Source: Nannocystis sp. RBIL2 | GTDB taxonomy: Bacteria > Myxococcota_A > Polyangia > Nannocystales > Nannocystaceae | Assembly (NCBI RefSeq): GCF_026626745.1 | Contig: NZ_JAPNJW010000002.1 | Span: 1,446,151 to 1,510,150 of the forward strand | Reading direction: 5' to 3' | DNA length: 64,000 bases | In this document: positions 4,541 through 44,156 of the stretch, piece by piece | Numbering within the stretch: position 1 is the stretch's first letter | How the letters are laid out: every line of letters begins with the position of its first letter | Translations under genes and position numbers: made by a program | Notes under the pieces: model-generated | The model's database searches: none | What the model saw: only the letters and a program-made list of their open reading frames with translations | What the model was told of the DNA's origin: nothing

Positions 4541-5161
4541 TCGAGGCGAGCACCGGCTGCCGAGCAAATCGTCGGACCTCGCCCGGGGACGCGTCGAACG
4601 ACCCGGCCCCGGGCGGCGCGTTCGAGTCGTCCGCGCACGCCGCGAGGACGTCGTCGGACGTCGCTCGGGAGCGGGCGACGTCCGCCTGGACTGGCCTGGG
4701 CATGCCCCTCCAAGATCATATGGGCGCTTTCGCGCAAGCTGGCTCAGCCGTGTCCGAGGGGCCTTGATCCAGTCGCAGAGGATCAAGACGTCATGGACCT
4801 GCTGTGACAGCATGAGCAAGACCATCCGCGAGGCGCTCGCAGCGACCGCGACCTGGGCGCCGAGGCGGCGCCTGCAAGCCCAGGCGCCTCCCGAAGACTC
4901 CTGGTGGGGCGACTCCGGGGGTGTGCGCTGCGCCGCCGCAGGGGGCGCCTCGTTCACGGTTCGGTACGGCGGCCCGGTCGAGTCGAGGAAACCGGCGTAC
5001 CCCGAATGGGAGTAGCGGACCGCACAGGGTCGTTCGTTGTCCGCCAGAGTCCGCCTTCTCTCAGGCGGTGACGACGCTCCCCCGGCGAGCGCGCGAACCG
5101 CCTCGCAGCCACACGAGCCAGACGCGAGCCCGCGCGCAGCGGCTCAGTAGATTTCACGACC

Positions 5162-5808: not shown

Positions 5809-6915
5809 TTATTCGCAGGCGACGCGCACGTCGACGACCTCGCCGGAGCGCTGCTGGCCGGCGGTGCGGTAGACGAAGCTGGCGCGCTCGAGGCCGCAGT
5901 TGCCGCGCGCATCGCACTCGCGGCGAGTGGTGAAGCCGAGGTCGATCTCGACGATCTCGAAGCTCGCGAGCGGCAGCATCTCCCACCCGCTCGAGCGACG
6001 GTCGGCGTCGTGGTCGGCCCACAGCATCAGCTCGCCCCAGTGCGCGTCCGCGGCGGTGATCTTGCCGTCGCGGTCGCTGTCGAGCTCGGCGAGGGCCTGG
6101 AAGCCGTTATGCACACCTGACCCGAAGGACAGGCGGGTGGCGGCGCCGAACAGCTCCTGGCCGCCGTCGATGCTGCCGTTGCCGTCGCGGTCGAGCGCGA
6201 GCCACGGGGTGGCGGCGGTCGGCCAGTCGGCGCGGGCGCAGCTGCCCGCGCCGCCGTGGATGTCGAAGTCGGCCGCCGAGGCGGAGGTCGGTGCGAACTC
6301 GATGGCGTCGCCGAAGCTCAGCACCAGCGGGGTGTTGCAGTCTTCCCAGTTCCACACGTGGCGGCCGGTCTCCTCGTCGACCATGCAGCCCATGTCGATG
6401 TCGAATTCTTCCTCGCCGAAGCCGCACGACTGGCTGTCGCCCGGCTTGCACTCGTCGGCCTCGCCGCACTCGCCCCAGCGCGTCTCGCCGGTGTCGGGGG
6501 TCGCCTCGTAAGCGACGCAGTGCTGGGTGCCGCCGTCACAGGCACGCGAGTCGCCCTCCTTGGCGCACGTCTCCGTCAGACAGGCGGTCCAGATGTGGCT
6601 GTACTGATCGAGCGACCAGACGCAGAACTCGAGGCCGGCGACGCCGCCGATCTGACACTCGCCAGACAGCTGGGACTGGTCGCAGATCTCGCCCGCACGG
6701 CCGAAGTCCGCCTTGGGCTCGGGCTCGGGCTCGCCTTCGTCCTCACTCTTGATCTCGCCCTCGCTGTCGCCCTCGCCTTCTTCGGCGCCCTCGCTGTCGG
6801 CCTCGCCGGCCGTGGAGTCGCCGTCGTTCGCGTGGTGACCCTCGACCTTCGAATCACAGGCCGGCAATGCGAGGAAGAGCGAGGACAAGGTGAGGAGGCG
6901 GGTCGTGGTCGTCAT
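5809..6915 (-). CDS. Secreted lipoprotein with EF-hand-like calcium-binding loops.
   Basis: Signal peptide plus lipobox 'LFLALPAC'. Acidic Glu/Asp-rich linker. Two canonical EF-hand loops, 'DRDGNGSIDGGQE' and 'DSDRDGKITAADAHWGE'. Multiple Cys. Strong GC3 bias. Confidence 0.7.
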   Translation of the reverse strand: MTTTTRLLTLSSLFLALPACDSKVEGHHANDGDSTAGEADSEGAEEGEGDSEGEIKSEDEGEPEPEPKADFGRAGEICDQSQLSGECQIGGVAGLEFCVWSLDQYSHIWTACLTETCAKEGDSRACDGGTQHCVAYEATPDTGETRWGECGEADECKPGDSQSCGFGEEEFDIDMGCMVDEETGRHVWNWEDCNTPLVLSFGDAIEFAPTSASAADFDIHGGAGSCARADWPTAATPWLALDRDGNGSIDGGQELFGAATRLSFGSGVHNGFQALAELDSDRDGKITAADAHWGELMLWADHDADRRSSGWEMLPLASFEIVEIDLGFTTRRECDARGNCGLERASFVYRTAGQQRSGEVVDVRVACE

Positions 6916-7340
6916 GCGGATGTCGCCTTAGCAGGGGCCGTGCCAAGCCGCCCAGGGGACGTGCAGGCGACGTGGACGCCGTTTGCAGCGCGGGTCGGAG
7001 AAGCCCCTGCGACGAGGCTGGAGCCCACCGGCGTCCTGGTCTGACGGGAGTGTCGTGCGCTCTCGCCGGGGCGAGCCACGCCAGCGACGGCCGGCGGGCG
7101 TCGGCCAGCATCGCGGCCGAGCGGGTCGAATCGCGGGCGCACATCTTCGAGGGAGCCGAGGCGAGCGGGCACCAGCGCTGGCGACTTCGGGATCTGCGCC
7201 CCCGCCGCGGACGGAGAGGCGGTCCCTCGCTGAGAGCGCGCAGGCGCCCTCGAGCACCTCGCTCCGGTGCAGGTGCGCCCCGCCCCATATTAAAAGCGCG
7301 GGCGCCAAAGCCCCCTGCAGCCGCGCGCAGCCTCGCCTTC

Positions 7341-8567
7341 ATGCCCGAGCCCACCGCCTCCTCGCGTCATCTGACCACGCTCCTCGTGCTCGCCTACCTC
7401 GGCTTTGTCAGCCTCGGGCTGCCCGACGCGGTGCTCGGAGTGGCCTGGCCGTCGCTGCGCGCCGCCTTCTCGCTGCCTCAGGCGGCACTCGGCGCGCCGC
7501 TGGCCGCTCTGGCGGTCTCGTACTTCCTCTCGGGGCTGGCGGCCGGCAGCCTCATGCGCCGCGCGGGGATCGGCGCGCTCCTGGCAGGCAGCACCGCGAT
7601 CGTCACGCTGGCGGTCGCGGGGTTCGCTTCGGCGCCGAGCTTCGGCGTCTTCCTCGCCGCGGCGTGCATCGGAGGCTTCGGCTCCGGCGCCATCGATGCC
7701 GCGCTCAACGCTTACGTCGCGCACAACTTCGGCGCGCGCCACATGACCTGGCTTCACGCGGCCTACAGCTTGGGCGCGGCGCTCGGGCCCGCCCTCATGA
7801 CGGCAGTCCTCGCGCGCGAGGCGGGGTGGCGCACGGGATACGCGGTCCTCGCCGGGGCGCTCGGTGTGCTCGCGGTCGCCTTCATCCTCACCCGCCGGCG
7901 CTGGGACGAAGGCGCCGCCGCCACTGCCCCGGACGCCGCCACCTCCACCGCGAGCGCCGAGCAAGACGCCGGGCCTCACGTGCTGCGCCGCCCTCGCGTG
8001 TGGCTGCAGCTCGGGTTCTTCTTCCTGTACACGGGCCTCGAGATGTCTGCGGGTCAATGGGCCTTCACCGTGCTCACCGAGGCGCGGGGTCTCGACGAAT
8101 CTCAGGCCGGTACCCAGGTCAGCCTCTACTGGGCGAGCCTGTTGGCGGGCCGCATCGTCCTCGGCTTCGTCGTCGAACGCGTGGGCCCGGTGCTCCTCGT
8201 GCGCCTCGCCACCGCGCTCGCCGTGCTCAGCGCGGCCGTGTTCGCTCTCCCCGGCCTGCCGCCGGTGGCGGCATTCACCGGCCTCGCGCTCCTCGGCTTC
8301 GCCCTGGCCCCCATGTACCCGGTTCTGATGGCCGAGACGCCGCGCCGCATGGGGTCGCACGCGGCCCACGCCGTGGGTTTTCAGGTGAGCGCCGCGACCG
8401 CGGGCATCGCCGCCATGCCCAGCCTCGCGGGCCTGCTCGGCCAACGGCTCGGGCTCGGCGCGATCCCGTGGTTCCTGGTGGGCACCGCCGTGGCGCTCGC
8501 GCTCCTGCACGAGACGCTCGTGGCGACCGTGGACCATCCAGGTCACCCTCGCTCATCGCCGCGATGA
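7341..8567 (+). CDS. MFS transporter.
   Basis: ATG at 7341 within the longer ORF 6972..8567. About 12 predicted hydrophobic helices. MFS signature-like 'GLAAGSLMRRAGIG'. Length 408 aa. Confidence 0.8.
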   Translation: MPEPTASSRHLTTLLVLAYLGFVSLGLPDAVLGVAWPSLRAAFSLPQAALGAPLAALAVSYFLSGLAAGSLMRRAGIGALLAGSTAIVTLAVAGFASAPSFGVFLAAACIGGFGSGAIDAALNAYVAHNFGARHMTWLHAAYSLGAALGPALMTAVLAREAGWRTGYAVLAGALGVLAVAFILTRRRWDEGAAATAPDAATSTASAEQDAGPHVLRRPRVWLQLGFFFLYTGLEMSAGQWAFTVLTEARGLDESQAGTQVSLYWASLLAGRIVLGFVVERVGPVLLVRLATALAVLSAAVFALPGLPPVAAFTGLALLGFALAPMYPVLMAETPRRMGSHAAHAVGFQVSAATAGIAAMPSLAGLLGQRLGLGAIPWFLVGTAVALALLHETLVATVDHPGHPRSSPR

Positions 8568-26206: not shown

Positions 26207-26720
26207 GCTCTTCGCATTGTCGATGCTCTCGCTGCCCGAGGCGACGCGAGCATCGACTTCGAGCGGCCCGACCCGCCGGCGTGACCCGGCCCCGAGCTGC
26301 TCGCAGAGCTGCCCTGAGGAGGGCGAGCGCATCGACTTCGGGTGGCGCGACCCGCCGGCGTGACCCGGGTCCGGACGCATCCCCTTCGCCGGCATCGGCG
26401 CCGAGTCTTCCCACGGCGCGCCTCCTCTCGACCCGTCCTCGCCACGGAAGCGATCGCTGCGCTCCACCTTCGTGGTCCTCGCCTCGCCCGCGTGAGGACC
26501 CGCCGCGCCTGCCGTCTTCTCGTCGCTATCGCGCGGCGGACTGCTCCGACCTGACGGCCGCGTAACGGTCCGCGCACGGACGCGCTGCATCTTTCCTCCG
26601 ACGCTGCTCCGCGGGCGCGGCTTCGGCCGGATGGGTGGGCTCAGGGCGCACCTGCCCGCGGACGTCGCCTGCGGCGGCGCGAGTTGCCGGCCTTCGCTCG
26701 ACTCTCGTACCCTGGCGAGC

Positions 26721-28646
26721 ATGCTCGCTTACAGCTTCGCTTGTCGTTCGCTGGGTCTCGTGATGCTCGCCTCGGCCCTCGCCTGTGGTCGCACCGACAC
26801 TGCAGTGCTCACGGACACCGGCACCGGCACCACCGACACTGACGGCACCACCACTGCAGGCAGCACCACCGGCCCCGACTTGCCGACCACCACCGCGCCG
26901 ACTACCGAGACCGGCACGATCGGCGGCACCGAGACCGGCACCACCCTCGAGCCGACCACCGGGCCTGCCACCGACACCGCGATCACGAGCACCGACGGCA
27001 CGGTCACCGACGGCACCATCACCGACGGCACCACCACCTCGACCACGACTTCGACCTCGACCACCACCACCACCGGCGAGACCGACAGCACCACCGGCCC
27101 GCCGCCGATCTGCGGCGACGGTCAGGTCGATCCGGGCGAGGAGTGCGACGACGGCGACCTCGTCGACCTCAACGCCTGCTCCAACGCCTGCATCGCCGCC
27201 GTGTGCGGCGACGGCATCGTCCAGGAGCTCGTGGGCGAGGAGTGCGACGACGGCAACGACATCGAGGGCGACGGCTGTTCGACCGGCTGTCGCCTCCCCG
27301 TCTGCGGCGACAGCATCGTCCAGATCACCGAGGAGTGCGACGACGGCAACCTCGACGACGGCGACGATTGCACCAACGCCTGCACCACCGCCGTGTGCGG
27401 CGACGGCGTCGTCCAGGTCGGCGTCGAGCCGTGCGACGACGGCAACGACCTCGACAACGACGACTGTCTGGTCGGCTGCATCCTCGCCGAGTGCGGCGAC
27501 GGCATCGTCCACGACCTGCTCGAGGCCTGCGACGACGGCAACGACGTCAACGACGACACCTGCACCAACGAGTGCGCCCTCGCCACCTGCGGCGACGGCA
27601 TCTTGCAGATGGACGAGGAGTGCGACGACGGCAACGCCCTCGACGACGACGCCTGCACCACCCTGTGCAAGCTCGCGGTGTGCGGCGACGGCTTCGTCCT
27701 CGCCGGCACCGAGGCCTGCGACGACGCCGGCAACAGCCCCGCCTGCGACAGCGACTGCACCCTCCCGCAGTGCGGCGACGCCCACCACAACCCGGCCAGC
27801 GGCGAGGCGTGCGACACCGGCGGCGACAGCCCCACGTGCGACAGCGACTGCACCCTCGCGGTGTGCGGCGACAAGACCGTCAACGGCGCCGCCGGCGAGA
27901 CCTGCGACGCCGGCACCGAGACCGCCACCTGCGACGACGACTGCACCGCCGTCGTCTGCGGCGACGAGGTCCTCAACGAGAGCGCCGGCGAGGCCTGCGA
28001 TCACGGCAGCCAGACCTCCACCTGCGACCTCGACTGCACCTTCGCCGCCTGCAACGACGGCGTCATCAACAGCGCCGCCGGCGAGAACTGCGAGGACGGC
28101 AACCTCGCCGAGGGTGACGGCTGCAGCTCGAAGTGCAAGGCGCACAAGGTCGTGTTCGCCACCAGCCAGGGCTTCGACGGCAACCTCGGCGGCCTCGCCG
28201 GCGCCGACATGAAGTGCCAGGCCGCCGCCCAGGCCGCCGGCCTCCCCGGCACCTACCGCGCCTGGCTGAGCGACGACACCGGCACCCCCGTCACCCGCTT
28301 CACCAAGTCGGCCATCCCCTACGCCCGCCGCGACGGCGTCCTCGTCGCCAACAACTGGGCCGACCTCATCGACGGCAACATCGCCGCCGCCATCAACCTC
28401 TCCGAGCTCAAGACCCCGCCCGGCTCCGACGCCAACGTCTGCGGCGGCGTCTCCCAGCTCACCTTCACCAACACGATCACCAACGGCACCATGTTCACGG
28501 ACTTCACCGATTGCCAGAACTGGACCAGCAACGCCCCCGGCTTCACCGGCGGCGGCCAGTGGAACAAGGCCGACGGCCTGTGGACGCAATTCGTCTGCCA
28601 GCAATCGTGCGCCTGGAAGAAGCCGATCTACTGCTTCATGCAATAG
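26721..28646 (+). CDS. Lipoprotein with about 12 myxobacterial Cys-rich repeats and a C-terminal DUF1554-like domain.
   Basis: Lipobox 'ASALAC'. Thr-rich linker. Reiterated 'CGDG.V...EECDDGN...DGC...C' units. The C-terminal 'KVVFATSQGFDGNLGGLAGADMKCQAAAQAAGL...YRAWLSD' matches the DUF1554 pattern as recalled. Confidence 0.8.
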   Translation: MLAYSFACRSLGLVMLASALACGRTDTAVLTDTGTGTTDTDGTTTAGSTTGPDLPTTTAPTTETGTIGGTETGTTLEPTTGPATDTAITSTDGTVTDGTITDGTTTSTTTSTSTTTTTGETDSTTGPPPICGDGQVDPGEECDDGDLVDLNACSNACIAAVCGDGIVQELVGEECDDGNDIEGDGCSTGCRLPVCGDSIVQITEECDDGNLDDGDDCTNACTTAVCGDGVVQVGVEPCDDGNDLDNDDCLVGCILAECGDGIVHDLLEACDDGNDVNDDTCTNECALATCGDGILQMDEECDDGNALDDDACTTLCKLAVCGDGFVLAGTEACDDAGNSPACDSDCTLPQCGDAHHNPASGEACDTGGDSPTCDSDCTLAVCGDKTVNGAAGETCDAGTETATCDDDCTAVVCGDEVLNESAGEACDHGSQTSTCDLDCTFAACNDGVINSAAGENCEDGNLAEGDGCSSKCKAHKVVFATSQGFDGNLGGLAGADMKCQAAAQAAGLPGTYRAWLSDDTGTPVTRFTKSAIPYARRDGVLVANNWADLIDGNIAAAINLSELKTPPGSDANVCGGVSQLTFTNTITNGTMFTDFTDCQNWTSNAPGFTGGGQWNKADGLWTQFVCQQSCAWKKPIYCFMQ

Positions 28647-29338: not shown

Positions 29339-30634
29339 ATGTCGCCCTCCCGTCGTCCGGGCCCCTGCACTCTCGCCGCGCTGGCCCTGTTCGCCTGCGG
29401 CCCGACCCCCGGCAGCGACCCGACCACCGACGCGAGCACGACGACCGCCACGAGCTCCACCGAGCCGTTCGTCGACACGACGACGACCGGCACACCGATG
29501 ACCGGTGAGCCGACGACCAGCTCCGACACGACCGTCGCCACGACCGTCGACCCGACGACGACCGGCATCGACCCGGGCACCACGAGCGACACGACCACCA
29601 CCACGACCAGCGACGGCTCGACCACCGCCGATGCCGACTGCACCGTCGTCGAGTTCACCGAGCCCGCGCTCGAGGCCGCAGTGCGCCTGGCCTACGGTCT
29701 ACCGCCCGGACCGATCGCCGGCGACGCGCTGACCGGCCCGGGGGGGATCGTCGTCGCCAAGCTCCAGCATGGCCCGATCGCCGACCTCACCGGGCTGGAG
29801 TGTGCGACCGGGGTCGTGAGTCTGACCCTGGTGGGCCACGAGGCCTTGACCGACATCTCGCGGATCGCGGGGCTGACCAAGCTCGAGTGGCTCGAGCTCT
29901 CGGAGACCGCGGTCACCGACCTCTCGCCGCTGGCAGGGCTGACGGCCCTGAAGAATCTCTACCTCGGCAGCATCCCGGCGACTGACATCAGCCCGATCGC
30001 CGGTCTGTCCGCCCTCGAAGTTCTCAGCCTGCGAGCCTCGCCGAGCACCGACATCTCGCCCTTGCAGGGCCTCGCGGCGCTCAGGCGGCTCGACCTCGGC
30101 CATACCCTCCCCGTCGACCTCTCCCCCCTCACCGGCCTCGTCACCCTCGAGGAGCTCGACCTCGCCGAGTCCGAGGTCACCGACCTCGCGCCGCTCGCCG
30201 GCCTGCCGGCGCTCGTCCGGCTCGACCTGACCCACTCCGCGGTCACCGACCTCGGGCCGCTCGCCGGCGTGCCCAAGCTCGAGCGGCTGTTCATGGCCGA
30301 CACCGAGGTCGCCGACCTGTCGCCCCTGACGGGCCTGCCGATCCTCTACCTCTACGCCCCGTCGTGTGCGATCACCGACCTGAGCCCGATCGCCAGCTTC
30401 CCGATCCCGGAAGTGATCGACCTCAGCGACAACATGATCGTCGAGGTCGACGCTCTCGCCGGCGTCGACTGGATGGTCCCCGAGAATACGTGCGCCATGC
30501 TCCTGCTGGCTGGCAATCCGCTGTCCGCCGAGGCCAAGCAGCAGCTCCCCGCCATGTGCGAGGCCACCGGTGTCAGCTTCGAGGCCGGCGTCCTGCAGTG
30601 CATCACCGACGCCTGCATCCCCCCGCCGCCCTGA
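29339..30634 (+). CDS. Leucine-rich-repeat (LRR) lipoprotein.
   Basis: Lipobox 'ALFAC'. Thr-rich linker. At least 9 tandem ~22-aa LRR units of the form 'L..L.LS.T.VTDLSPLAGL'. Confidence 0.8.
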   Translation: MSPSRRPGPCTLAALALFACGPTPGSDPTTDASTTTATSSTEPFVDTTTTGTPMTGEPTTSSDTTVATTVDPTTTGIDPGTTSDTTTTTTSDGSTTADADCTVVEFTEPALEAAVRLAYGLPPGPIAGDALTGPGGIVVAKLQHGPIADLTGLECATGVVSLTLVGHEALTDISRIAGLTKLEWLELSETAVTDLSPLAGLTALKNLYLGSIPATDISPIAGLSALEVLSLRASPSTDISPLQGLAALRRLDLGHTLPVDLSPLTGLVTLEELDLAESEVTDLAPLAGLPALVRLDLTHSAVTDLGPLAGVPKLERLFMADTEVADLSPLTGLPILYLYAPSCAITDLSPIASFPIPEVIDLSDNMIVEVDALAGVDWMVPENTCAMLLLAGNPLSAEAKQQLPAMCEATGVSFEAGVLQCITDACIPPPP

Positions 30635-30913: not shown

Positions 30914-33900
30914 ATGACCCACTCCGGAGCGACCGCCGCTTTCGCGGACATGAATTGGCTGCAACGCCTGGCCGCCGCCCTCGCACGAGACGCCGACGAC
31001 GCCGCCGACCTCGTGCAGGACACGCTCGTGACCGCATGGTCCCACCCGCCGGCCGACGACGGCCAGCCGCTGCGCCCGTGGCTGGCGACGGTCCTTCGCA
31101 ACCGTTTCCGCATGCAGCTGCGCACGCAGGCGCGTCGCGAGCGGCGCGAGCAGGCTGGGGCGTCGACGAGGGCGATCGCCGCCGAGCCCGACCGGGAGTT
31201 GCTGCGCCTGGAGCTGCTCCGTGTGCTCCTCGCCGAGCTCGAGCGGCTCGCGCCCGAGGACCAGAAGATCATCGTCCGTAGGTTCTTCGAGGGTGAGAGC
31301 GCGGCCGAGATCGCCCGCGGGCTCGCCATTCCTGCGGCGACCGTCCGCTCGCGCCTCCACCGCTCGCTCCAGCGCCTGCGTGCTCGACTCGACGAGCAAT
31401 TCGGCGGGCGTTCGGCCTGGTGTGTCGTGGTCCTGCCCGCGCCTCACGGCGCGTCGCTCCCGTCCGCGAGCCCAAGCAGCTCCATGAGCATCGCCGCGAA
31501 AGTCATTCTCGTGACGAGCCTCGGCATCGTCGGTGTGGCCGGCTGGCTCGCGCTCACGGAGCCATCCCCGGCGGGGCCTCCCTCCGCGGGACCGACTGCC
31601 TCGCAAACCGTCCTGCGGTCTCCGGTGGAGGGACCGGCGAGGACGCCGATCGACCCGCGCCGTGCAGACCGGGCGGCCATCTCCGGGCACGTGCGCGATC
31701 CCGAGGGCCACCCGGTGCCGGCTGCGACGGTGTGCGCGGCGTCGTCGTCGGAGACGCTCGGCGCGTCCGAGCGGCGCGCGAGGCCTTGCACGATCGCGGC
31801 GGCGGACGGCTCTTATCGCCTGGACGGCCTGCTGGCAGTGCCGCATCGGATCACCGCGAGCGCGCCGCATTTCATCCCGCGGGCGCACCGGAGCGGCTCC
31901 GGGGCCCTGGCGCGCGAGCTGGTGCCCCTGCGCTTCGGGCAGGAAGAGCGTGGCATCGACATCACCCTGCTGCCCGGCGGGGTGAAGCTCGTCGGCATCG
32001 TGCGCGACCTCGGCGGCGGAGAGGTCGATGGCGCGCTCCTCGAAGCGGGCGACGCGGCCGGGCGCTCGGGCGCGGACGGCAGCTTCTCGCTGTGGGTCCG
32101 CCCGGGCGAGGTGCTGGTGACGGCGACGGCGGAGGGCTATGCGGACGCGCAAACCTCCGGACGCGCACCGGGATTGACGCTCGAGATCCTCATGATTCCG
32201 GAGTCGGTGCTGCTCGGCCGGGTGGTGCGCGCCGACGACGGGTCGCCGGTCGCGGGCGCCGAGGTGAGCGCGCTCAACGGCGGCGGCTGGGGTCGCCAAG
32301 GACCGGCCTTCACCGACGCGTCCGGAAACTTCAGGATCGACGCGTTGCGACCCGGTGCCTACAAGGCGCGGGCGCTGCATGACGAGGGATATGGTGCTGC
32401 GGAGGCGCTGGTGGTGCTCGGCCTCGGTGAAACCTCCGCGCCGGTGGAGGTCCGCATGCACCCGGCTTTCCTGGTCGAAGGGACAGTCGTGGTCGCCGGC
32501 GGGGGCACGTGCGATCGCGGCTCGATCATCCTCTCGGACCCCCAAGGCCAGCGTCATGCGACTATCTCACCCGACGGCCGGGTGCGGGTCCCGGGGCTGC
32601 TGCCCGGGAGTTACAAGGTGGACGTCCGGTGCGAAGGGTTCGTGTCGGCGCCGAGCTACCCGCCCCTGGCGATCGCCGACCGCAGCCTCCGCGAGCTACG
32701 CTGGGAGGTCCGACCGGGCCAGGCGATTCGCGGTACGGTCGTCGCTACGACCAGGGATCCCGTCACTGCGATGACGGTGACGGTGAACCCGCAGGTCGAC
32801 CCGAGCCGTTCGAATGCGCAGTCGACCAGCGGAATCGCAGAGGCCGACAACGCCGGACGGTTCGAGGTCAAAGGCCTGTTGCCGGGGCGCTATGCATTGC
32901 GCGTGTTCGCCGGAGATCCACCGCAGCTCCTCCAGGGGCCCGAAGTCGAGGTTCGTGACGGACATGACCTCGAAGACATCCGTATCGAGCTGCCGGCGGC
33001 CGGCGAGGTCCGTGGCGAGGTCCACGACGTCCACGGCCGCGCCATCCCCGGGGCGAGGGTCTTGCTGCGTGGGCCGACCTACGCGCAGACGACCAGCCTC
33101 GACGACGGGAGCTTCCGCCTCTCCGGCCTCGCTGCCGGCGCGTACCAGGCGAGCGTGAACAAGAGCTACCAGCCGCTGCGCATGCACGACGCCAAGGACG
33201 GCGAAGCGCCGCGCGTGGAGGTCGAGACCGGCGAGGCCGCTGTCCTCGACCTCGTCGTCGAGGCCCCGGACGGGAAGATCTCTGGACGGGTCGTGGATAG
33301 CGACGAGGCAGCGCAGGACGACGTCTTCGTCGAGGTCTTGCACGAGCCGGAGAGCGGCTCACCAGGGGCCACCTTGCGCGACATGCGGTGGAGCATGGAC
33401 CGCGGCCTGCGGCCGCGGATGACCGACGTCGACGGAAGGTTCGAGTTTGGCGACCTGCCTGAAGGGACATATACGCTCGTGGCCCACCGGCGTGACGGCG
33501 GCGAGGGGATCGTCGAGCGGGTGGCCGTGGGCAGCGAGGTCGTCGTCAAGATAGCCGCGCCGGGCTCGCTGGTCGGGCGGGTACGCTTGCCCGGCGGCGG
33601 CGGACCAGAGCGATTCTCGGTGGAGCTCCGCGATGCGGCGACCGGCTACCAGGTACGCGACAGCTTCTTCCGCACCGACGGGACGTTCGCGTTCCCGCAG
33701 GTGCCTGCAGGTAATTTCGTGGTCGCAGTCGAGGCGCCGGAAGGCGCGGGCAAGGCCGAGGTCGCGCTGGCGACGGGCGAGCGCGGACAGGTCGAGGTCA
33801 CGCTGGCGGGCCGCGTCACCGTCCGCGGCCGCGTGCTCGACCTCGACACCGGCGAGCCGGTGCCGGGAATGCGCGTGAAGTTCGGCGCGGAAGGGAGAGA

Positions 33901-34405
33901 GGCGTTCATCAGCTCGGCGGACCACGTCGACGAGCGCTCGGTGTCCGACGCGGACGGCCGATTCGAGGTCGCCGACGTGCCTGTCGGCCATGCGACGGTG
34001 ATCGTCACCGCCAGGAGCTTCGGAGCGACGAGCGACCACGAGACTATCTGGACGCGTGTACGGATCTCGAACGGTAGCGTGGTCGAACTGGCGCCGCTCG
34101 AGGTGCCGCGAAGCCGGCTTCAGCCCGGCGACGAGGCCGGCGAGCTCGGCATGACGATGCGACGAGACGTTCCGACCGAGGGAGCGGAAGCGCGGCCGCC
34201 GACAATCGCGTTCGTGCAGCCTGGCGGCCCAGCCGCGCACGCCGGGCTGCGGGTCGGCGACGCGATCGTCGCGGTCGACGGACATGACGTCACCGGCGAC
34301 CACGTGCATCGCTTCGATGCCCTGACACGGGTGCCCGTGGGGACCGAGCTCCGCCTCGAGCTCGAGCGTGGAGGCAGCGTCACGCTCACCGCCGCACGCC
34401 GATGA
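30914..34405 (+). CDS. ECF sigma-70 factor fused in one polypeptide to a TM helix, a large extracytoplasmic region with carboxypeptidase-regulatory-like (Ig-like) repeats, and a C-terminal PDZ domain.
   Basis: Region 2 'DLVQDTLVTAWSH...PWLATVLRNRFRMQLR'. Region 4 HTH 'LAPEDQKIIVRRFFEGESAAEIARGLAIPAATVRSRLHRSLQRLRARL'. Hydrophobic helix 'IAAKVILVTSLGIVGVAGWLAL'. Repeated ~80-aa beta-rich units of the form 'G.V.D..G.P..GA.V.......T.(D/A)GSFR..GL..G.Y'. C-terminal PDZ-like 'IAFVQPGGPAAHAGLRVGDAIVAVDG'. The frame is continuous with no stop. Confidence 0.75.
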   Translation: MTHSGATAAFADMNWLQRLAAALARDADDAADLVQDTLVTAWSHPPADDGQPLRPWLATVLRNRFRMQLRTQARRERREQAGASTRAIAAEPDRELLRLELLRVLLAELERLAPEDQKIIVRRFFEGESAAEIARGLAIPAATVRSRLHRSLQRLRARLDEQFGGRSAWCVVVLPAPHGASLPSASPSSSMSIAAKVILVTSLGIVGVAGWLALTEPSPAGPPSAGPTASQTVLRSPVEGPARTPIDPRRADRAAISGHVRDPEGHPVPAATVCAASSSETLGASERRARPCTIAAADGSYRLDGLLAVPHRITASAPHFIPRAHRSGSGALARELVPLRFGQEERGIDITLLPGGVKLVGIVRDLGGGEVDGALLEAGDAAGRSGADGSFSLWVRPGEVLVTATAEGYADAQTSGRAPGLTLEILMIPESVLLGRVVRADDGSPVAGAEVSALNGGGWGRQGPAFTDASGNFRIDALRPGAYKARALHDEGYGAAEALVVLGLGETSAPVEVRMHPAFLVEGTVVVAGGGTCDRGSIILSDPQGQRHATISPDGRVRVPGLLPGSYKVDVRCEGFVSAPSYPPLAIADRSLRELRWEVRPGQAIRGTVVATTRDPVTAMTVTVNPQVDPSRSNAQSTSGIAEADNAGRFEVKGLLPGRYALRVFAGDPPQLLQGPEVEVRDGHDLEDIRIELPAAGEVRGEVHDVHGRAIPGARVLLRGPTYAQTTSLDDGSFRLSGLAAGAYQASVNKSYQPLRMHDAKDGEAPRVEVETGEAAVLDLVVEAPDGKISGRVVDSDEAAQDDVFVEVLHEPESGSPGATLRDMRWSMDRGLRPRMTDVDGRFEFGDLPEGTYTLVAHRRDGGEGIVERVAVGSEVVVKIAAPGSLVGRVRLPGGGGPERFSVELRDAATGYQVRDSFFRTDGTFAFPQVPAGNFVVAVEAPEGAGKAEVALATGERGQVEVTLAGRVTVRGRVLDLDTGEPVPGMRVKFGAEGREAFISSADHVDERSVSDADGRFEVADVPVGHATVIVTARSFGATSDHETIWTRVRISNGSVVELAPLEVPRSRLQPGDEAGELGMTMRRDVPTEGAEARPPTIAFVQPGGPAAHAGLRVGDAIVAVDGHDVTGDHVHRFDALTRVPVGTELRLELERGGSVTLTAARR

Positions 34406-39459: not shown

Positions 39460-40491
39460 TCATGGCTCGAGCGAGCCCGGGACCACGCACGCGCCGAGCG
39501 TCGCGAATGACGGGTCCTCCTCCATCCACACCGGAAAATCATCGCAGCTCGCGGCCGGGTCGCTGCAATCCGGCGCCGCGAGGTCACACCATTCGCTGCA
39601 GCAGCGCTCCTCGGCGCAGCCGGGCACGTGCTCGGCGGGGAGGCACAGCTTGCCCTGCCCACATTGATCATAGTCGCAGTCGGCGCCGAGCGGCAGCTCG
39701 CCCGGCGGGACCTCCCAGCAGAAGTTCGTCCCGTACAGGAACGCCGGGTAAAAGAGGCACTGCAGATCGGCCGGGCACGTCTCCGGCGCCTGCGGGTTGC
39801 ACTCGAAGTGCAGGCAGGCGTGCGGGAAGATCGAGCCGTTCTCGGTCGCGTACTGCGTGCCCGGGAAATCGCTGCAATCCTGGCTCCCGGGCTTCGGATA
39901 CGGCGCGCAGAAGCCGTGGTCCGTGACCCCGAACGCCTCGAGGCAGAACGACTCGGGGCCGCAATCGTCGCTGACATTGAGCCAGATCCCGTTCGGCAGC
40001 GAGCACGCCGCGAACGGTGCGCCGTCGCCGACGACGTCGACGCAGCGCGCGTGGTCGCGGCGGCGCATCTCGCCCGGCGTCGCGTACCACACGCATTTCT
40101 GCCCGGCCGGACAGTCCTGCGCCATCGGGTCGCACTGCGGGATCTCTGGGCCCATGTCCGGGGGGCACACGAATTCGCACCCCGTCGTCGCGCTGCCCTC
40201 GCCGGGCTCGCTCGCGCTGGCGCTGCCGGTATTCGAGGTGCCGGACGCCTCCTCGGTCGTGCCGACCCCGGTCGTGATGCCGTCCGTGACGCCGCTGCCG
40301 GGGCCCGAGCTCGTCCATTCGCCGGAGCTCGACATGCCCTCGGTGCCGCCTGCTGTCTCGCTCGCTCCCGGGTTGTCGCCGGTGCTCGCATCGGTGGCGG
40401 TGAGCAGGTCTTTATAAATGGAGCAGGCCGGCGCGACGATCGACACGGCGAGCGTCACGCACGAGAGGAGGCGAACTTGGCTTGCGGTCAT
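39460..40491 (-). CDS. Cys-rich secreted lipoprotein.
   Basis: Lipobox 'SIVAPAC'. Gly/Ser/Thr-rich linker. About 30 Cys in the globular C-terminal 230 aa. Confidence 0.65.
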   Translation of the reverse strand: MTASQVRLLSCVTLAVSIVAPACSIYKDLLTATDASTGDNPGASETAGGTEGMSSSGEWTSSGPGSGVTDGITTGVGTTEEASGTSNTGSASASEPGEGSATTGCEFVCPPDMGPEIPQCDPMAQDCPAGQKCVWYATPGEMRRRDHARCVDVVGDGAPFAACSLPNGIWLNVSDDCGPESFCLEAFGVTDHGFCAPYPKPGSQDCSDFPGTQYATENGSIFPHACLHFECNPQAPETCPADLQCLFYPAFLYGTNFCWEVPPGELPLGADCDYDQCGQGKLCLPAEHVPGCAEERCCSEWCDLAAPDCSDPAASCDDFPVWMEEDPSFATLGACVVPGSLEP

Positions 40492-40557: not shown

Positions 40558-41640
40558 TCACCGGCCGACGCAGGTGGAGTCGAGCTGCGCGCGCACGCGC
40601 TGACGCGCCGGCTCCGACATGCCCGCTGCGACCGCGCGGGCCTCGTCCGCGCGCCCGAGCTCGCACAGCGCGCGCACCCGCGTCAGCGACCGCGCCTCCG
40701 CCAGCGGACTCTGCGAGAAGCTGCGCTCGTGGCGATCGAGCTCGGCGAGGGCGGTCGTCGCGTCGCCGGCCTGCAACGCGGCCACTGCGGTCGCCAGAAG
40801 CCCCGCGCCGAGCTCGTCGGGAGCATCCATCCTCTGCGACAGCATCGCCTCGAACCGACTGCCGGGCGGCGGCGGCGGCAACACGATCGGCGCGCTCGTG
40901 TTCGCCGATGAGGCCACGCGCGAAGCAGTCGGGCCGCTCGCGCCCGCCGGGGCGGCATCCGGCGCCTCGGCCGGCGAGCGGAGGACCACCGGCAGCGCGA
41001 CCGCGGCCGCGACCACCAGCACGCCGATGCTGCCCTTCGCCTTGACGAGCCCCGCCACCAGCCACCCGCTCGCGCCGGCCGGCTCTCCCAGGCGCGGCAG
41101 CAGCACCAGCCACGCGCGCTGCGTCACCGCCGGGTCGGGCGCCGGCTCTCGCGCGGCGTCGGCGAGCAGCGCCCGCTCGAACAGGCTCCGCGTCGCCCGC
41201 AGCCGCGTGTACACCGTGTCCAGCGGCACCCCCAGCCGCGCCGCGATCTCGGGCCCCGTCAGGCCGTGCAGCTCGCCCAGCACGAACACCTCGCGCCGGT
41301 CCGCGCCGAGCTGGTCGAAAAAGCGCCGCAGGAACCGCTCGGCCTCGACGCGCATCCACGGCCGCTCCTCGACCGCGCCGACGGCCACCTCGCACCACGC
41401 CGCGAGCTTGCGCTGGCGGCGACCGTGCGCGCGGCGGTAGCGAAAGGCGACGCGCCGGGCGATGCCGACCAGCCACGGCTCGGCCGCCCGCGCCGCGTCG
41501 AACTCGGCCCGCCGGCGGTAGAGCACCACGAACACGTCCTGCACCGCGTCGTCGACCGCCGCTGCCGGCACCCCGAGGCGCGCGATCACGCTGCGCACCA
41601 GGCCGTGGGACGCCCGGTACAGCCGGCCGAAGCTCGCCAT
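40558..41640 (-). CDS. ECF sigma-70 factor with a C-terminal transmembrane anchor and a ~140-aa extracytoplasmic tail.
   Basis: ATG at 41640 confirmed on the sequence. Region 2 'DAVQDVFVVLYRRRAEFD...EPWLVGIARRVAFRYRR'. Region 4 'ADRREVFVLGELHGLTGPEIAARLGVPLDTVYTRLRATRSLFERAL'. Hydrophobic helix 'SIGVLVVAAAVALPVVL'. Pro-rich tail, then a helical C-terminus. Confidence 0.75.
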   Translation of the reverse strand: MASFGRLYRASHGLVRSVIARLGVPAAAVDDAVQDVFVVLYRRRAEFDAARAAEPWLVGIARRVAFRYRRAHGRRQRKLAAWCEVAVGAVEERPWMRVEAERFLRRFFDQLGADRREVFVLGELHGLTGPEIAARLGVPLDTVYTRLRATRSLFERALLADAAREPAPDPAVTQRAWLVLLPRLGEPAGASGWLVAGLVKAKGSIGVLVVAAAVALPVVLRSPAEAPDAAPAGASGPTASRVASSANTSAPIVLPPPPPGSRFEAMLSQRMDAPDELGAGLLATAVAALQAGDATTALAELDRHERSFSQSPLAEARSLTRVRALCELGRADEARAVAAGMSEPARQRVRAQLDSTCVGR

Positions 41641-41690
41641 GTCCTCGAGGCCGCGCGAAACCGGGCGAAATTCCGCTGCAGGCTGGTCCG

Positions 41691-42860
41691 TCACGGGCCC
41701 TTCTTCTCCGGCCGCCCGCTCTTCTGGGGTCCCAGGGCGATCGTCAGGCCGACCGACCCCCGCACCCCGTAGCGCCCCTCCGGCGCCAGCAGCACGCCGC
41801 CGATCGCGTAAGTGGTCGCGACCGGCGCCGCGAACCCGTCGACCGCCACGTGGACCCCGACCTGCGGCGAGAACCACCCGTCGAGCGCCCCGCCCAGCGC
41901 GAATGCGAGCCACGGACCGCCGGCTCGGCGCTCCGGCACCAGCCCGACGCTCGTGGCCCGGCTGCCGCCTGCCTCGACCGCGCCGCACACCGCCAGCTCG
42001 AGCGACCCACCGAGGAACCGCGGGCACGCGCGCAGCACCCCGGCCGCCATGCGGAGCGTCCCGCCGCGGCCCGAGCCGTCGCCGAGCGCGAGCCCCTGCC
42101 CCGGCAACACCAGCGCGCCGCCCTCGACCCGCACCCGATCGAACATCCACCCGGCCGTCACCGCGAGGCCGAAGTCGCCGCGTGGAAACGCCCCGTACCC
42201 CGCGACCGCCACCAGCCGCGCCACCGGGCCCTGCCGTCGCACCCGTCGCGGCTGCGGGCGTGGAGCGGCCGGCGCGACCGCCTCGGCTGCCGCGGGCTCG
42301 ATCCGAGCGGGCACCGGCGCCGCCATCGCCTCGCCCTCCGGGACGCTCGCCGCCGCGACCTCGGGCACGAGCGCCGGCGGCTCCGCAGTCATCGCCGGCG
42401 GCTCCGCAGTCCCCGGCGGCTCCGCCTCCGTCAAAATCGCTACAGGCGGCGCGTCCGCGCTCGGCACCACCAGGCGCTTCGACGCCGCCAGCGGCTCTGC
42501 GAGCACTGCCACCAGCACGACCGTCGCCTGTGCCAACATTTCGCAATCCTCGGCGACCAGGTCGCGCTCGAGACTGCCACCATTCCAGCGCAGCCGCAGC
42601 GACAGGCGAAATCGATCGACCGTCGCGCCGCTGTCGATCACGCGCGCCCGCGCCTCGAGCACCAGCGGCTGCTCCCCGAGCAGCGGCTTCATTCGCCGCA
42701 GCAGCGTCGCGCGATCGGGGCACGCGCTCGCCGGCGCATCCCACGACAATCGCACCCCCGTCGTCGCTGTCTCGCCCGCCGCAGTCACCGGCGCGGCCGC
42801 GACGGCGATCCCGAGGCCCGCGGTCCGCCACGACTGCCCGGTGCTCTTCGTCCCGCGCAC
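41691..42860 (-). CDS. Hypothetical secreted protein with a Gly/Ala-rich C-terminal half, upstream of and co-directional with the anchored ECF gene.
   Basis: Signal-like N-terminus 'TAGLGIAVAAAPVTAAG'. Pro/Ala-rich middle. The C-terminal half has alternating Gly/hydrophobic residues, suggesting a beta-barrel or beta-rich fold. Confidence 0.45.
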   Translation of the reverse strand: MRGTKSTGQSWRTAGLGIAVAAAPVTAAGETATTGVRLSWDAPASACPDRATLLRRMKPLLGEQPLVLEARARVIDSGATVDRFRLSLRLRWNGGSLERDLVAEDCEMLAQATVVLVAVLAEPLAASKRLVVPSADAPPVAILTEAEPPGTAEPPAMTAEPPALVPEVAAASVPEGEAMAAPVPARIEPAAAEAVAPAAPRPQPRRVRRQGPVARLVAVAGYGAFPRGDFGLAVTAGWMFDRVRVEGGALVLPGQGLALGDGSGRGGTLRMAAGVLRACPRFLGGSLELAVCGAVEAGGSRATSVGLVPERRAGGPWLAFALGGALDGWFSPQVGVHVAVDGFAAPVATTYAIGGVLLAPEGRYGVRGSVGLTIALGPQKSGRPEKKGP

Positions 42861-42909
42861 GGCGAAGCGACGTTACCCCCTCCCGCCCGACGGGGAAAGG
42901 CCATCGCCA

Positions 42910-43869
42910 CTATCCCGCGAGCTCTGCCACGAGCCGCCTCGCCTCCTCGCGCACGCTGGCCTCCGGATCGTCGAGGAACCGCCGCATCCTCTCGAGGCAA
43001 TCGGCAGGGCGCCGCTGAAACACAGCCTGAAGCACCGCCAGGCGGATGTTGTCTGCTTCGTCGCGGCGAAACGACCAGAGCAGCTCCAGGGCGCCCGGGT
43101 GCGGGTTGGCGCCGAGCCCGAGCACGACCTCGTACGAGCGATACGCCGGCGAGACGAGCGCCTGGCCGAGGGCCTGCAGCGCTTCGTCGGTCCCGTGGCG
43201 ACACAATCGCTTCAGCGCCACGAAGGGCCGCTCCCCGGGGCCTTGCAGCAGCCGCACGTAGTGCGAGACCACGCGGCCGTCTTCGACGGTGGCGAGCGCC
43301 TGCTCCGCCTCGCGCCAGACCGTGTCGTCCGCGGACAGCGTCCGGTGTCCCAGCTCGTCGATGACCGAGCCCAGCGCCGCGCGATCGGGCGGCTGGACCG
43401 CGAGCGTCGTCGCGACCTGGACGCCGATCTCCGCTGCCGGTCTTCGCAGGCTCTCCGCGGACCACGGCTCTTCCGCGCATCGCAGCTGCTTGGCGATCTC
43501 GATCCTGTGCGCCCCGGCGGCCTCGAAGCGGACCCAGTGCGCGAGCAACAGCCGCCTCCGGAACGGCTTGTCGACCGACAGACGCCGGCCGCCGACCACG
43601 CCTCCCAGCTGGGGCCCTGCGTCGCGGATCGGGAGGCTGCGCCCGCGCTCGACGTCGATCGCCGCCACTGCGTAGCTCTCGGGCCGGCCCAGGCGGTTGC
43701 GGTAGTCGCCGCCCTCGATCAGGATGAGCGGCTCGCCCGCGACGAGCCGCACCTCGAAGGTCAGATAGAGCGGCTCGTCCTGTCGAAGCGTCCGCCGATC
43801 GGGCGCGACAGACACGGCGAGCTCGCGCGCACGCACGTCCACGTGAACCGCCGACTCGGTGGGCGTCAT
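42910..43869 (-). CDS. Hypothetical protein with HEAT-like helical repeats at its C-terminus.
   Basis: 319-aa ORF. The C-terminal 'LAVLQAVFQRRPADCLERMRRFLDDPEASVREEARRLVAEL' is HEAT/PBS-lyase-like. It is the first gene of a co-directional trio ending in the ECF gene. Confidence 0.45.
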   Translation of the reverse strand: MTPTESAVHVDVRARELAVSVAPDRRTLRQDEPLYLTFEVRLVAGEPLILIEGGDYRNRLGRPESYAVAAIDVERGRSLPIRDAGPQLGGVVGGRRLSVDKPFRRRLLLAHWVRFEAAGAHRIEIAKQLRCAEEPWSAESLRRPAAEIGVQVATTLAVQPPDRAALGSVIDELGHRTLSADDTVWREAEQALATVEDGRVVSHYVRLLQGPGERPFVALKRLCRHGTDEALQALGQALVSPAYRSYEVVLGLGANPHPGALELLWSFRRDEADNIRLAVLQAVFQRRPADCLERMRRFLDDPEASVREEARRLVAELAG

Positions 43870-44156
43870 GCCCCGAGGATGTCAGATTCGTCGGACGCCC
43901 GCCATCCAGGTGGATCGTCGCGCTCTATCCGTGTTCTGCGGTCCGGCGAAAGAGTCACGCAGGTGCATGCAATGGCTCGTTCGAGAGAGTTCGACGCGGC
44001 GCTGTCGATCCTCGACCGTGGATGGGCCCGCTCGGTCCAGGCGCTGCCGTACGCATTGACGGGGCGAGCGTTCTCGCTCAAACTGCCGCTGCCCGGGCCC
44101 AGGACCATCCCCACGGAGGGCGAGGCTCCGCAACAGCCCGGGCGAGGGAGGATCGC

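Follow-up and report, generated by a model that had tools for sequence, protein, structure and literature searches.

The window examined here is a 64,000-nucleotide stretch of the genome of Nannocystis sp. RBIL2 (contig NZ_JAPNJW010000002.1, positions 1,446,151 to 1,510,150 of the forward strand). At the locus considered, where the G+C content is ~72%, the minus strand carries four open reading frames (ORFs) in head-to-tail order. They encode, in this order, a HEAT-like protein, a Gly/Ala-rich protein with a predicted outer-membrane beta-barrel, an extracytoplasmic function (ECF) sigma factor that continues into a membrane helix and a periplasmic domain, and a Cys-rich lipoprotein-like protein. 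The first two genes are separated by a gap of 49 bp, the second and third overlap by 4 nt, and a gap of 66 bp precedes the last. An earlier inspection of the letters alone (hereafter the sequence-only reading) had listed the first three of these ORFs on the minus strand, and all three are present as it described them. Here we are concerned mainly with two of them, namely the barrel gene and the ECF gene, whose product is referred to as the fused ECF protein (Table 1).

A scan of one genome per species returned 392 relatives, and the loci of the best 80 were compared. These 80 loci all come from Nannocystaceae or other Polyangia, i.e., Nannocystis, Enhygromyxa, Paraliomyxa, Polyangium, Sorangium, Labilithrix and metagenome-assembled genomes, and several of the genomes carry multiple paralogues. 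The anchored ECF thus belongs to a conserved and lineage-restricted family, as had been surmised. The conserved module, however, is not the three-gene unit that had been proposed, but comprises the barrel gene and the ECF gene only; none of the 80 related loci has the HEAT-like gene. Such gene pairs are common in Nannocystaceae and other Polyangia, and we regard it as probable that each of them, including the one copy in the window, is a signalling module that spans the envelope.

Architecture of the fused ECF protein

The fused ECF protein is 100% identical to the annotated Nannocystis sp. RBIL2 sigma factor, and at least 30 homologues of 370-440 aa, with 28-64% identity, keep its full architecture. 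Because of these full-length homologues and the identical annotated protein, the fusion is not a sequencing artefact. The start codon is most likely GTG 41694, and not ATG 41640 as annotated, since the GTGA sequence produces a 4-nt overlap with the upstream stop codon that recurs in the six closest orthologous loci, and since the orthologue N-termini align upstream of Met19 of the window protein, a position at which they have Leu. This overlap between the barrel and ECF genes is found in the window and in related loci L081, L082, L083, L085, L087, L089 and L091. Residues are therefore counted from GTG 41694 throughout. In Pfam, the protein matches Sigma70_r2 (E 5e-11) and Sigma70_r4_2 (E 1.5e-10), and no further domain. 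With the NCBIfam model TIGR02937 (sigma70-ECF) it reaches 57 bits, the cut-off being 42.9, and none of the specific NCBIfam subfamily models passes its cut-off. That is, regions 2 and 4 are present, without region 3 or region 1, as is characteristic of an ECF (group 4) sigma factor.

The structure of the fused ECF protein was modeled with AlphaFold2 using 30 homologues. The sole hydrophobic segment spans aa 220-238, with a 19-residue Kyte-Doolittle mean of 2.17, and coincides with a helix predicted at aa 211-237; across 56 fused homologues, the median hydropathy peak is 2.16. The proposal that this segment is a transmembrane helix is therefore upheld. The sigma factor had also been said to run directly from region 4 into this helix. 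The helix is there, but a conserved linker of ~45 aa intervenes, in which a further helix is predicted at aa 188-203 with a predicted local distance difference test score (pLDDT) of ~80. Similarly, the length of ~140 residues given for the tail is correct, but the description of the tail as Pro-rich and helical requires revision, in that the Pro-rich part is confined to the ~57 residues that follow the helix, among them 11 Pro and 12 Ala. These residues form a spacer, and the remainder is a folded helical domain (aa 297-372, pLDDT ~96). The spacer differs in length and sequence from one homologue to another. What the 30 full-length homologues have in common is thus the sigma core, the linker motif, the membrane helix, a variable Pro-rich spacer and an end domain of ~85 aa with two Cys. 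A Cys pair C-terminal to the helix is found in 56 of 56 fused homologues, 53 of which have exactly two Cys in this part of the protein; this invariant pair fits a periplasmic disulfide.

To identify the end domain, its profile was compared with 1.84 billion proteins. At E<=1e-3, the representatives of 25,959 clusters were matched; at E<=1e-10, the number was 8,377. The domain falls below the threshold for Pfam TPR_19 (E 8e-4), and its profile match to the N-terminal TPRs of BamD is marginal (E 0.002). It is probably a two-Cys mini-TPR, whose nearest matches in structure and sequence are the N-terminal TPRs of BamD and the TPR domain of YbgF. The best 145 new matches comprise 96 stand-alone proteins, 26 with a sigma core and 23 fragments. 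The stand-alone proteins have a median length of 258 aa, and a membrane helix near residue 64. The best match to the profile, P0050 (422 aa), has five tandem copies of the two-Cys mini-TPR and no sigma core.

Table 1. Positions of the genes and domains discussed in the text (window coordinates unless a related locus is named).
Feature	Coordinates	Strand	Description
ECF sigma/anti-sigma-like fusion gene	40558..41694	-	378 aa from GTG 41694; NCBI: 360 aa from ATG 41640
Sigma region 2	41380..41640	-	aa 19-105; AlphaFold2
Sigma region 4	41149..41361	-	aa 112-182; AlphaFold2
Cytoplasmic juxtamembrane linker	41065..41148	-	aa 183-210; motif R-x-W-L-L-L-L-P-R-L; putative short anti-sigma element
Single transmembrane helix	40981..41064	-	aa 211-238; hydropathy and AlphaFold helix
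Disordered periplasmic spacer	40813..40980	-	aa 239-294; Pro/Ala/Ser-rich; pLDDT <50
Putative periplasmic mini-TPR domain	40561..40812	-	aa 295-378; two invariant Cys (C344, C375)
Barrel partner gene	41691..42860	-	389 aa, Gly/Ala-rich; signal peptide, N-domain, Pro/Ala linker, 8-stranded barrel
Barrel-protein N-domain	42471..42764	-	aa 33-130; beta-alpha-beta-beta-beta-alpha; confident (AlphaFold2)
Barrel-protein Pro/Ala linker		-	aa 131-205; ~75 aa, disordered (AlphaFold2)
OmpA-like 8-stranded outer-membrane barrel	41733..42245	-	aa 206-376 (AlphaFold2)
HEAT-like gene	42910..43869	-	319 aa; outside the conserved module
Cys-rich lipoprotein-like +1 gene	39460..40491	-	343 aa; possible target gene
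+1 lipoprotein genes of the three closest orthologous loci	L081 2118-2645; L082 7594-8973; L083 7200-7883		compared with the +1 gene of the window
Second anchored ECF gene, other family	30914..34405	+	sigma, helix, nine CarboxypepD_reg and PDZ (Pfam)

Stand-alone counterparts of the extension

As had been noted, no separate anti-sigma gene follows the fused ECF gene in the window; the next gene encodes the Cys-rich lipoprotein-like protein, which has no family match. Other members of the family are split. In these loci the ECF protein, of ~190 aa, ends ~15 residues past region 4, and a separate ORF at the +1 position begins at the ECF stop codon or overlaps it. This ORF encodes a short N-terminus, one hydrophobic helix, a Pro-rich spacer and the two-Cys end domain. 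The split arrangement was found in at least 21 loci by tblastn, and for 36 ECF genes by profile searches with hidden Markov models (HMMs). The sequence-only reading had presupposed that the tail is not encoded separately, and these loci contradict it on this point. They also indicate that the window gene is a fusion of the sigma/anti-sigma type; they do not make it an artefact.

The stand-alone +1 proteins align with the extension of the window protein colinearly and without gaps from their residue 1. The first helix of the stand-alone proteins (A-R-A-L-L-x-A-A-R) coincides with the end of the last region 4 helix in the fused forms, and the second (D-R-x-R-V-[W/R]-x-x-L-x-x-R-L) with the W-L-L-L-L-P-R-L motif. 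The likeness between the end domains of fused and stand-alone proteins is strong, with E down to 1e-24. In a neighbor-joining tree of the sigma cores, constructed without bootstrap support, several clades contain both fused and split forms in alternation, which suggests that fusion or fission of the sigma factor and the +1 protein probably occurred more than once. By Rosetta-stone reasoning, this interleaving is an argument that the two act as a physical pair. We thus interpret the window protein as a sigma factor fused to its putative cognate anti-sigma factor, rather than as a sigma factor that dispenses with one. It is a fusion of the same kind as IutY of Pseudomonas putida, which is released by Prc and RseP (PMC5411451; PMC8999054).

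The anti-sigma function is putatively assigned to the cytoplasmic segment of ~45 aa. The label derives from a +1 position beside the ECF, a single-pass topology with the N-terminus inside, and fusion to sigma on repeated occasions, and not from a recognised domain. A class I anti-sigma domain, i.e., a four-helix domain of ~90 aa, with HxxxCxxC in the zinc-binding anti-sigma (ZAS) type, was considered and rejected, given the length of ~45 aa, the lack of a ZAS motif and the lack of a match in Pfam or the PDB. The short two-helix anti-sigma peptides of class II (CnrY/NepR-like), which bind across sigma-2 and sigma-4, are compatible with the segment in length and in the helix at aa 188-203, but not matched in sequence.

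The sequence-only reading had offered a different interpretation, namely that the two anchored ECFs of the window point to one lineage-specific family of self-tethered sigma factors, here taken to lack any anti-sigma function. The second of these, encoded on the plus strand and hereafter ECF1, is a protein of 1163 aa with one membrane helix (Kyte-Doolittle peak at aa 197), nine CarboxypepD_reg domains and a C-terminal PDZ domain. In both proteins a sigma factor is indeed followed by one helix and a periplasmic module, neither gene has an anti-sigma gene behind it, and a relative of ECF1 in locus L012 (2401..3924, minus strand) has the same plan with another periplasmic domain. Nevertheless, the sigma cores of ECF1 and the fused ECF are only 30% identical (E 1e-3), the linker of ECF1 scores no better than a reversed control against the linker profile of the fused ECF family, the periplasmic modules differ, and no barrel gene precedes ECF1. 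On the basis of the core identity and the linker comparison, a shared family was ruled out; the two belong to separate families. Moreover, the extension of the fused ECF corresponds to a stand-alone +1 protein, so that for this protein self-tethering without anti-sigma function is contradicted by the split loci. Overall, we consider this interpretation very improbable. ECF1 and its L012 relative, which share 46% identity over sigma, linker and helix, are a second family of anchored sigma factors, judging from their sequences, with what would be swappable sensor modules. Membrane anchoring of ECFs is recurrent in this lineage.

The barrel protein and the proposed signalling route

The protein encoded upstream of the ECF had been described as secreted and possibly a beta-barrel. 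This description is strongly borne out by a signal-like N-terminus and by the AlphaFold2 model, in which eight antiparallel membrane-spanning strands form an OmpA-like 8-stranded barrel. The protein has no Pfam or NCBIfam family match, and no family match to OmpA, OprF, NspA or OmpW at the sequence level. It differs from these four in its conserved Cys pairs, which are thus a feature of both proteins of the module, and in the short basic tail, rather than a terminal aromatic residue, that follows the last strand. Relative to OmpA, the domain order is reversed, i.e., the periplasmic domain is N-terminal; this N-domain is of a disulfide type. A word-indexed search for relatives of the barrel protein returned only 7-11, and was probably swamped by Ala/Pro-rich words. 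Among the neighbours of the ECF across related loci, the barrel gene represents the only conserved family besides the ECF itself. It lies directly upstream, on the same strand, for 69 of 92 family ECF genes, including 31 of 40 fused and 32 of 36 split genes.

The analysis itself establishes the arrangement of domains, the relationship by homology between the extension and the stand-alone +1 proteins, the fold of the barrel and the pairing of the two genes across loci. In the mechanism that we favor as probable, by analogy with known systems, the fused sigma factor would be released by regulated proteolysis after an envelope signal, with the barrel protein as its partner. At rest, the anti-sigma-like extension would keep the sigma factor inactive and at the inner membrane. 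The ECF gene is translationally coupled to the barrel gene, and the disulfide-type N-domain of the barrel protein would hang into the periplasm on its Pro/Ala linker of ~75 aa. The periplasmic TPR, on its spacer of ~57 aa, would read the signal, most plausibly via this N-domain or via the basic C-tail of the barrel protein. A change at this contact would open the extension to periplasmic trimming and to RseP-type (site-2) intramembrane cleavage, as demonstrated by experiment for IutY, and the freed sigma factor would direct RNA polymerase to its own operon, and probably also to the adjacent, variable lipoprotein gene.

Several observations weigh against this mechanism. Among the neighbour families across related loci, no protease gene is linked to the module. 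No ECF-type promoter motif was found upstream of the module, which leaves autoregulation and a regulon unsupported. The cytoplasmic segment of ~45 aa has no sequence match in Pfam or the PDB, and the ZAS motif occurs in 0 of the 96 stand-alone proteins. The likeness between the N-termini of stand-alone proteins and the linker of fused ones is weak, with seven in-register profile matches at E<0.01 versus none for the reversed control; a further match to the linker profile, P0051, is a probable truncated fusion and is counted apart from the seven. Lys plus Arg amount to 1.5 on one side of the helix and 1.5 on the other, and thus the positive-inside rule is uninformative on the topology. Lastly, about one quarter of the family has no upstream barrel gene, in some cases on long contigs (L008, L031, L033, L070), from which it follows that the barrel protein is not an obligate partner.

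This last observation, i.e., the ~25% of modules without a barrel gene, also bears on an alternative mechanism, in which the barrel protein is a co-expressed product or target, and the TPR tail senses another periplasmic cue, e.g., unassembled outer-membrane proteins or a peptide, in the manner of sigma-E/RseA/DegS. The nearest relatives of the tail, BamD and YbgF, are both periplasmic envelope-machinery proteins, as would be expected in this case, and the tail domain, with ~26,000 clusters, is far more widespread than its demonstrable association with a barrel. However, the barrel gene is upstream and translationally coupled in most split and fused members, an arrangement that fits a stoichiometric partner and not a downstream target. 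That it is the only conserved neighbour likewise argues against a mere product, and the flexible linker and periplasmic N-domain appear suited to reach a partner in the inner membrane. On balance, we think it rather unlikely that the barrel protein is a product only.

A further possibility is that the fused sigma factor is active while tethered, as a one-component system like ToxR or CadC, and recruits RNA polymerase to membrane-proximal promoters with no proteolytic release. The linker has no detectable canonical anti-sigma domain, no protease is linked to the module, and the title of one cited paper, at least, terms ECFs with extensions the one-component systems of the sigma family. Against this, the extension matches separate +1 membrane proteins; in those loci the sigma factor is free, and the +1 protein could act only by binding it. 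No sigma factor is known to be active in a tethered state. Furthermore, the only characterised sigma/anti-sigma fusion requires cleavage (PMC5411451). Activity in the tethered state therefore seems distinctly unlikely.

The preferred mechanism, with the barrel protein as partner and proteolytic release of the sigma factor, can be extended to a more specific, tentative proposal, which in its entirety is possible rather than probable. Namely, the barrel protein and the TPR-tailed anti-sigma factor, fused or split, would constitute an unrecognised, TonB-independent analogue of cell-surface signalling, in which a small, dedicated barrel relays a signal from the surface or the outer membrane via its tethered N-domain to the mini-TPR of the anti-sigma factor in the inner membrane. 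Each paralogue would control a different adjacent secreted lipoprotein, and the segment of ~45 aa would represent a new, minimal class of anti-sigma element.

Both fusions of sigma with anti-sigma factors and ECFs whose extensions span the membrane are established (PMC5411451, PMC8999054, PMC7826278), and it is accepted that ECF extensions can arise by gene fusion (PMC7671368). In IutY, as in the window protein, a single polypeptide joins a cytosolic ECF domain through one transmembrane helix to a periplasmic domain of the anti-sigma type, and is paired with an outer-membrane protein; in related systems its sigma and anti-sigma parts are separate. The window protein shows this architecture in full, including the separate +1 counterparts in its relatives. 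The components nonetheless differ: IutY (ECF243) has a FecI-type sigma, a FecR-type periplasmic domain and the 22-stranded TonB-dependent receptor IutA, whereas the window encodes a two-Cys mini-TPR and an 8-stranded barrel with an N-domain. Assignment to the FecI/FecR/FecA systems (ECF243) was rejected, since the score with the FecI models of NCBIfam is ~40-45 bits, where 185-260 would be required, since Pfam shows neither a FecR nor a TonB-receptor domain in the unit, and since the partner is 8-stranded.

In ECF48, ECF52 and ECF53 of Actinobacteria (e.g., SCO4117), the C-terminal extension also has transmembrane helices and a Pro-rich extracytoplasmic region, and activation by proteolysis has been proposed (PMC8999054). 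Their extensions, however, carry a ZAS anti-sigma domain, and in ECF52 also a carbohydrate-binding domain, neither of which is found in the window ECF; they belong to another phylum and have no outer-membrane partner. Membership was rejected because the window protein has no ZAS zinc finger and its relatives are Polyangia, not Actinobacteria. The sigma-E/RseA/DegS-RseP system resembles the one proposed here in its single-pass inner-membrane anti-sigma factor, whose periplasmic part reports on the state of the outer membrane or periplasm, and in its two-step proteolysis. By contrast, the anti-sigma domain of RseA is of class I, and fusions of RseA to sigma do not occur; the DegS PDZ domain and RseB take part in sensing, and the operon has no dedicated barrel gene.

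By comparison with published descriptions alone, the window family may be ECF220, which comprises 55 proteins, from Proteobacteria only, with a C-terminal extension and transmembrane proteins encoded at +1 and -1 (PMC7826278, Casas-Pastor et al. 2021, Table 2); an example is WP_061622786.1 of Sorangium cellulosum (PMC8999054). This suits the window ECF, which is myxobacterial, carries an extension and lies next to a -1 gene whose product has a signal peptide and a hydrophobic helix. The description is silent on a membrane-spanning extension, on the equivalence of the extension to stand-alone +1 proteins, and on an outer-membrane barrel at -1. A literature search found no functional study of ECF220, and the annotations of the fused homologues are generic names. 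Three points appear to be undescribed, namely the equivalence of the extension to stand-alone +1 proteins with a TPR tail, which form a very large family, the OmpA-like nature of the -1 partner and the short, unclassified cytoplasmic element. Thus, the locus looks like a myxobacterial variant of known envelope-to-gene signalling, and not like a new kind of system.

Polyangia have very large sets of ECFs, whose regulation is almost entirely unstudied. Among the periplasmic sensor domains of the anti-sigma factors putatively assigned to these ECFs, the unannotated two-Cys mini-TPR is one of the most common, and most copies of the module carry a dedicated OmpA-like barrel protein. If the barrel protein were the signal input, the module would constitute a second, TonB-independent wiring from the outer membrane to transcription, and the fused forms would be handy single-gene reporters for such signalling. 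If it were not, the analysis would still provide a useful annotation for thousands of proteins now named 'sigma-70 family' or 'hypothetical'.

Promoters and neighbouring genes

A search for the promoter motif GGAAC-N16-CGTC upstream of ECF1 and of the unit of the fused ECF had been suggested. For GGAAC-N15-18-CGTC, no match lies near ECF1 or near the unit of the fused ECF, and the window as a whole contains 2 matches, versus 4.2 expected by chance. In the regions upstream of 42 barrel genes, the bipartite words, the enriched 6-mers and the k-mers in common were GC-rich noise only. The 12-mer CTCGAACGAGCC is found upstream of the HEAT-like gene in the window (43930..43990, minus strand) and upstream of the barrel gene of L082 (~4665..4680). 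It could be a -35-type element, in which case the window promoter would precede the HEAT-like gene; across the family it is not enriched. AACGAGC-type words occur in 4 of 6 orthologous upstream regions, with no consistent -10 spacing, and family-wide in 7 of 42 loci, where the background is 0.25 per region, i.e., they are not enriched; as a promoter element they are a weak lead. In L082, the intergenic region of 391 bp that precedes the orthologous barrel gene (4597..4988) contains an AT-rich island in otherwise GC-rich DNA, with the repeats ACATGTCC, ACATGTCT and GGACATAT, which could be an operator.

The identification of the upstream gene as HEAT-like is weakly supported, and holds for the C-terminal ~140 aa only. 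The HEAT_2 score of its product is 23.7 bits, below the cut-off of 27.7, and the matches to alphaRep in the PDB (E 6.5e-4) and to the PADLOC HEAT-ARM model (E 3.5e-4) are weak. The PADLOC models of anti-phage defence show no match for the barrel, ECF or lipoprotein genes. As a conserved member of the unit, the HEAT-like gene was rejected, given that no homologue exists in any of the 80 loci or in the closest contigs that reach upstream of the barrel gene; in the closest orthologues, the gene upstream of the barrel gene is divergent or unrelated.

The downstream lipoprotein gene was rejected as a conserved member as well, having no counterpart in any related locus. Its product has a signal-like hydrophobic N-terminus. 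No terminator is predicted on the minus strand between it and the ECF gene. The +1 lipoproteins of the window and of the three closest orthologues have a common N-terminus, consisting of a C-x-x-x-[KE]-[DN]-L-L motif, then [T/D], then a Thr/Ser/Gly-rich stretch, and unrelated Cys-rich bodies. The +1 lipoprotein thus looks like a variable cargo behind a conserved leader, and this combination makes the +1 lipoprotein genes plausible targets of the sigma factor.

The only recurrent neighbour other than the barrel gene is a family of ORFs of ~600-790 aa, found in eight loci (L011, L030, L035, L041, L044, L047, L053 and L071). In several (e.g., L044, 7215..8990) the ORF directly follows the split anti-sigma-like gene; in others it lies elsewhere or on the other strand. 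L082 has two fused-ECF modules within 9 kb of one contig (2..1009 and 6269..7597), with a Cys-rich lipoprotein gene after the first. In L083, DarT and Macro-domain genes (814..2347), resembling a DarTG toxin-antitoxin pair, are located 3.5 kb upstream of the orthologous module. On the plus strand of the window, a leucine-rich-repeat lipoprotein is encoded directly upstream of ECF1 (29339..30634), and a secreted protein with seven Cys-rich DUF4215 repeats and a sub-threshold, endostatin-like end is encoded at 26631..28646.

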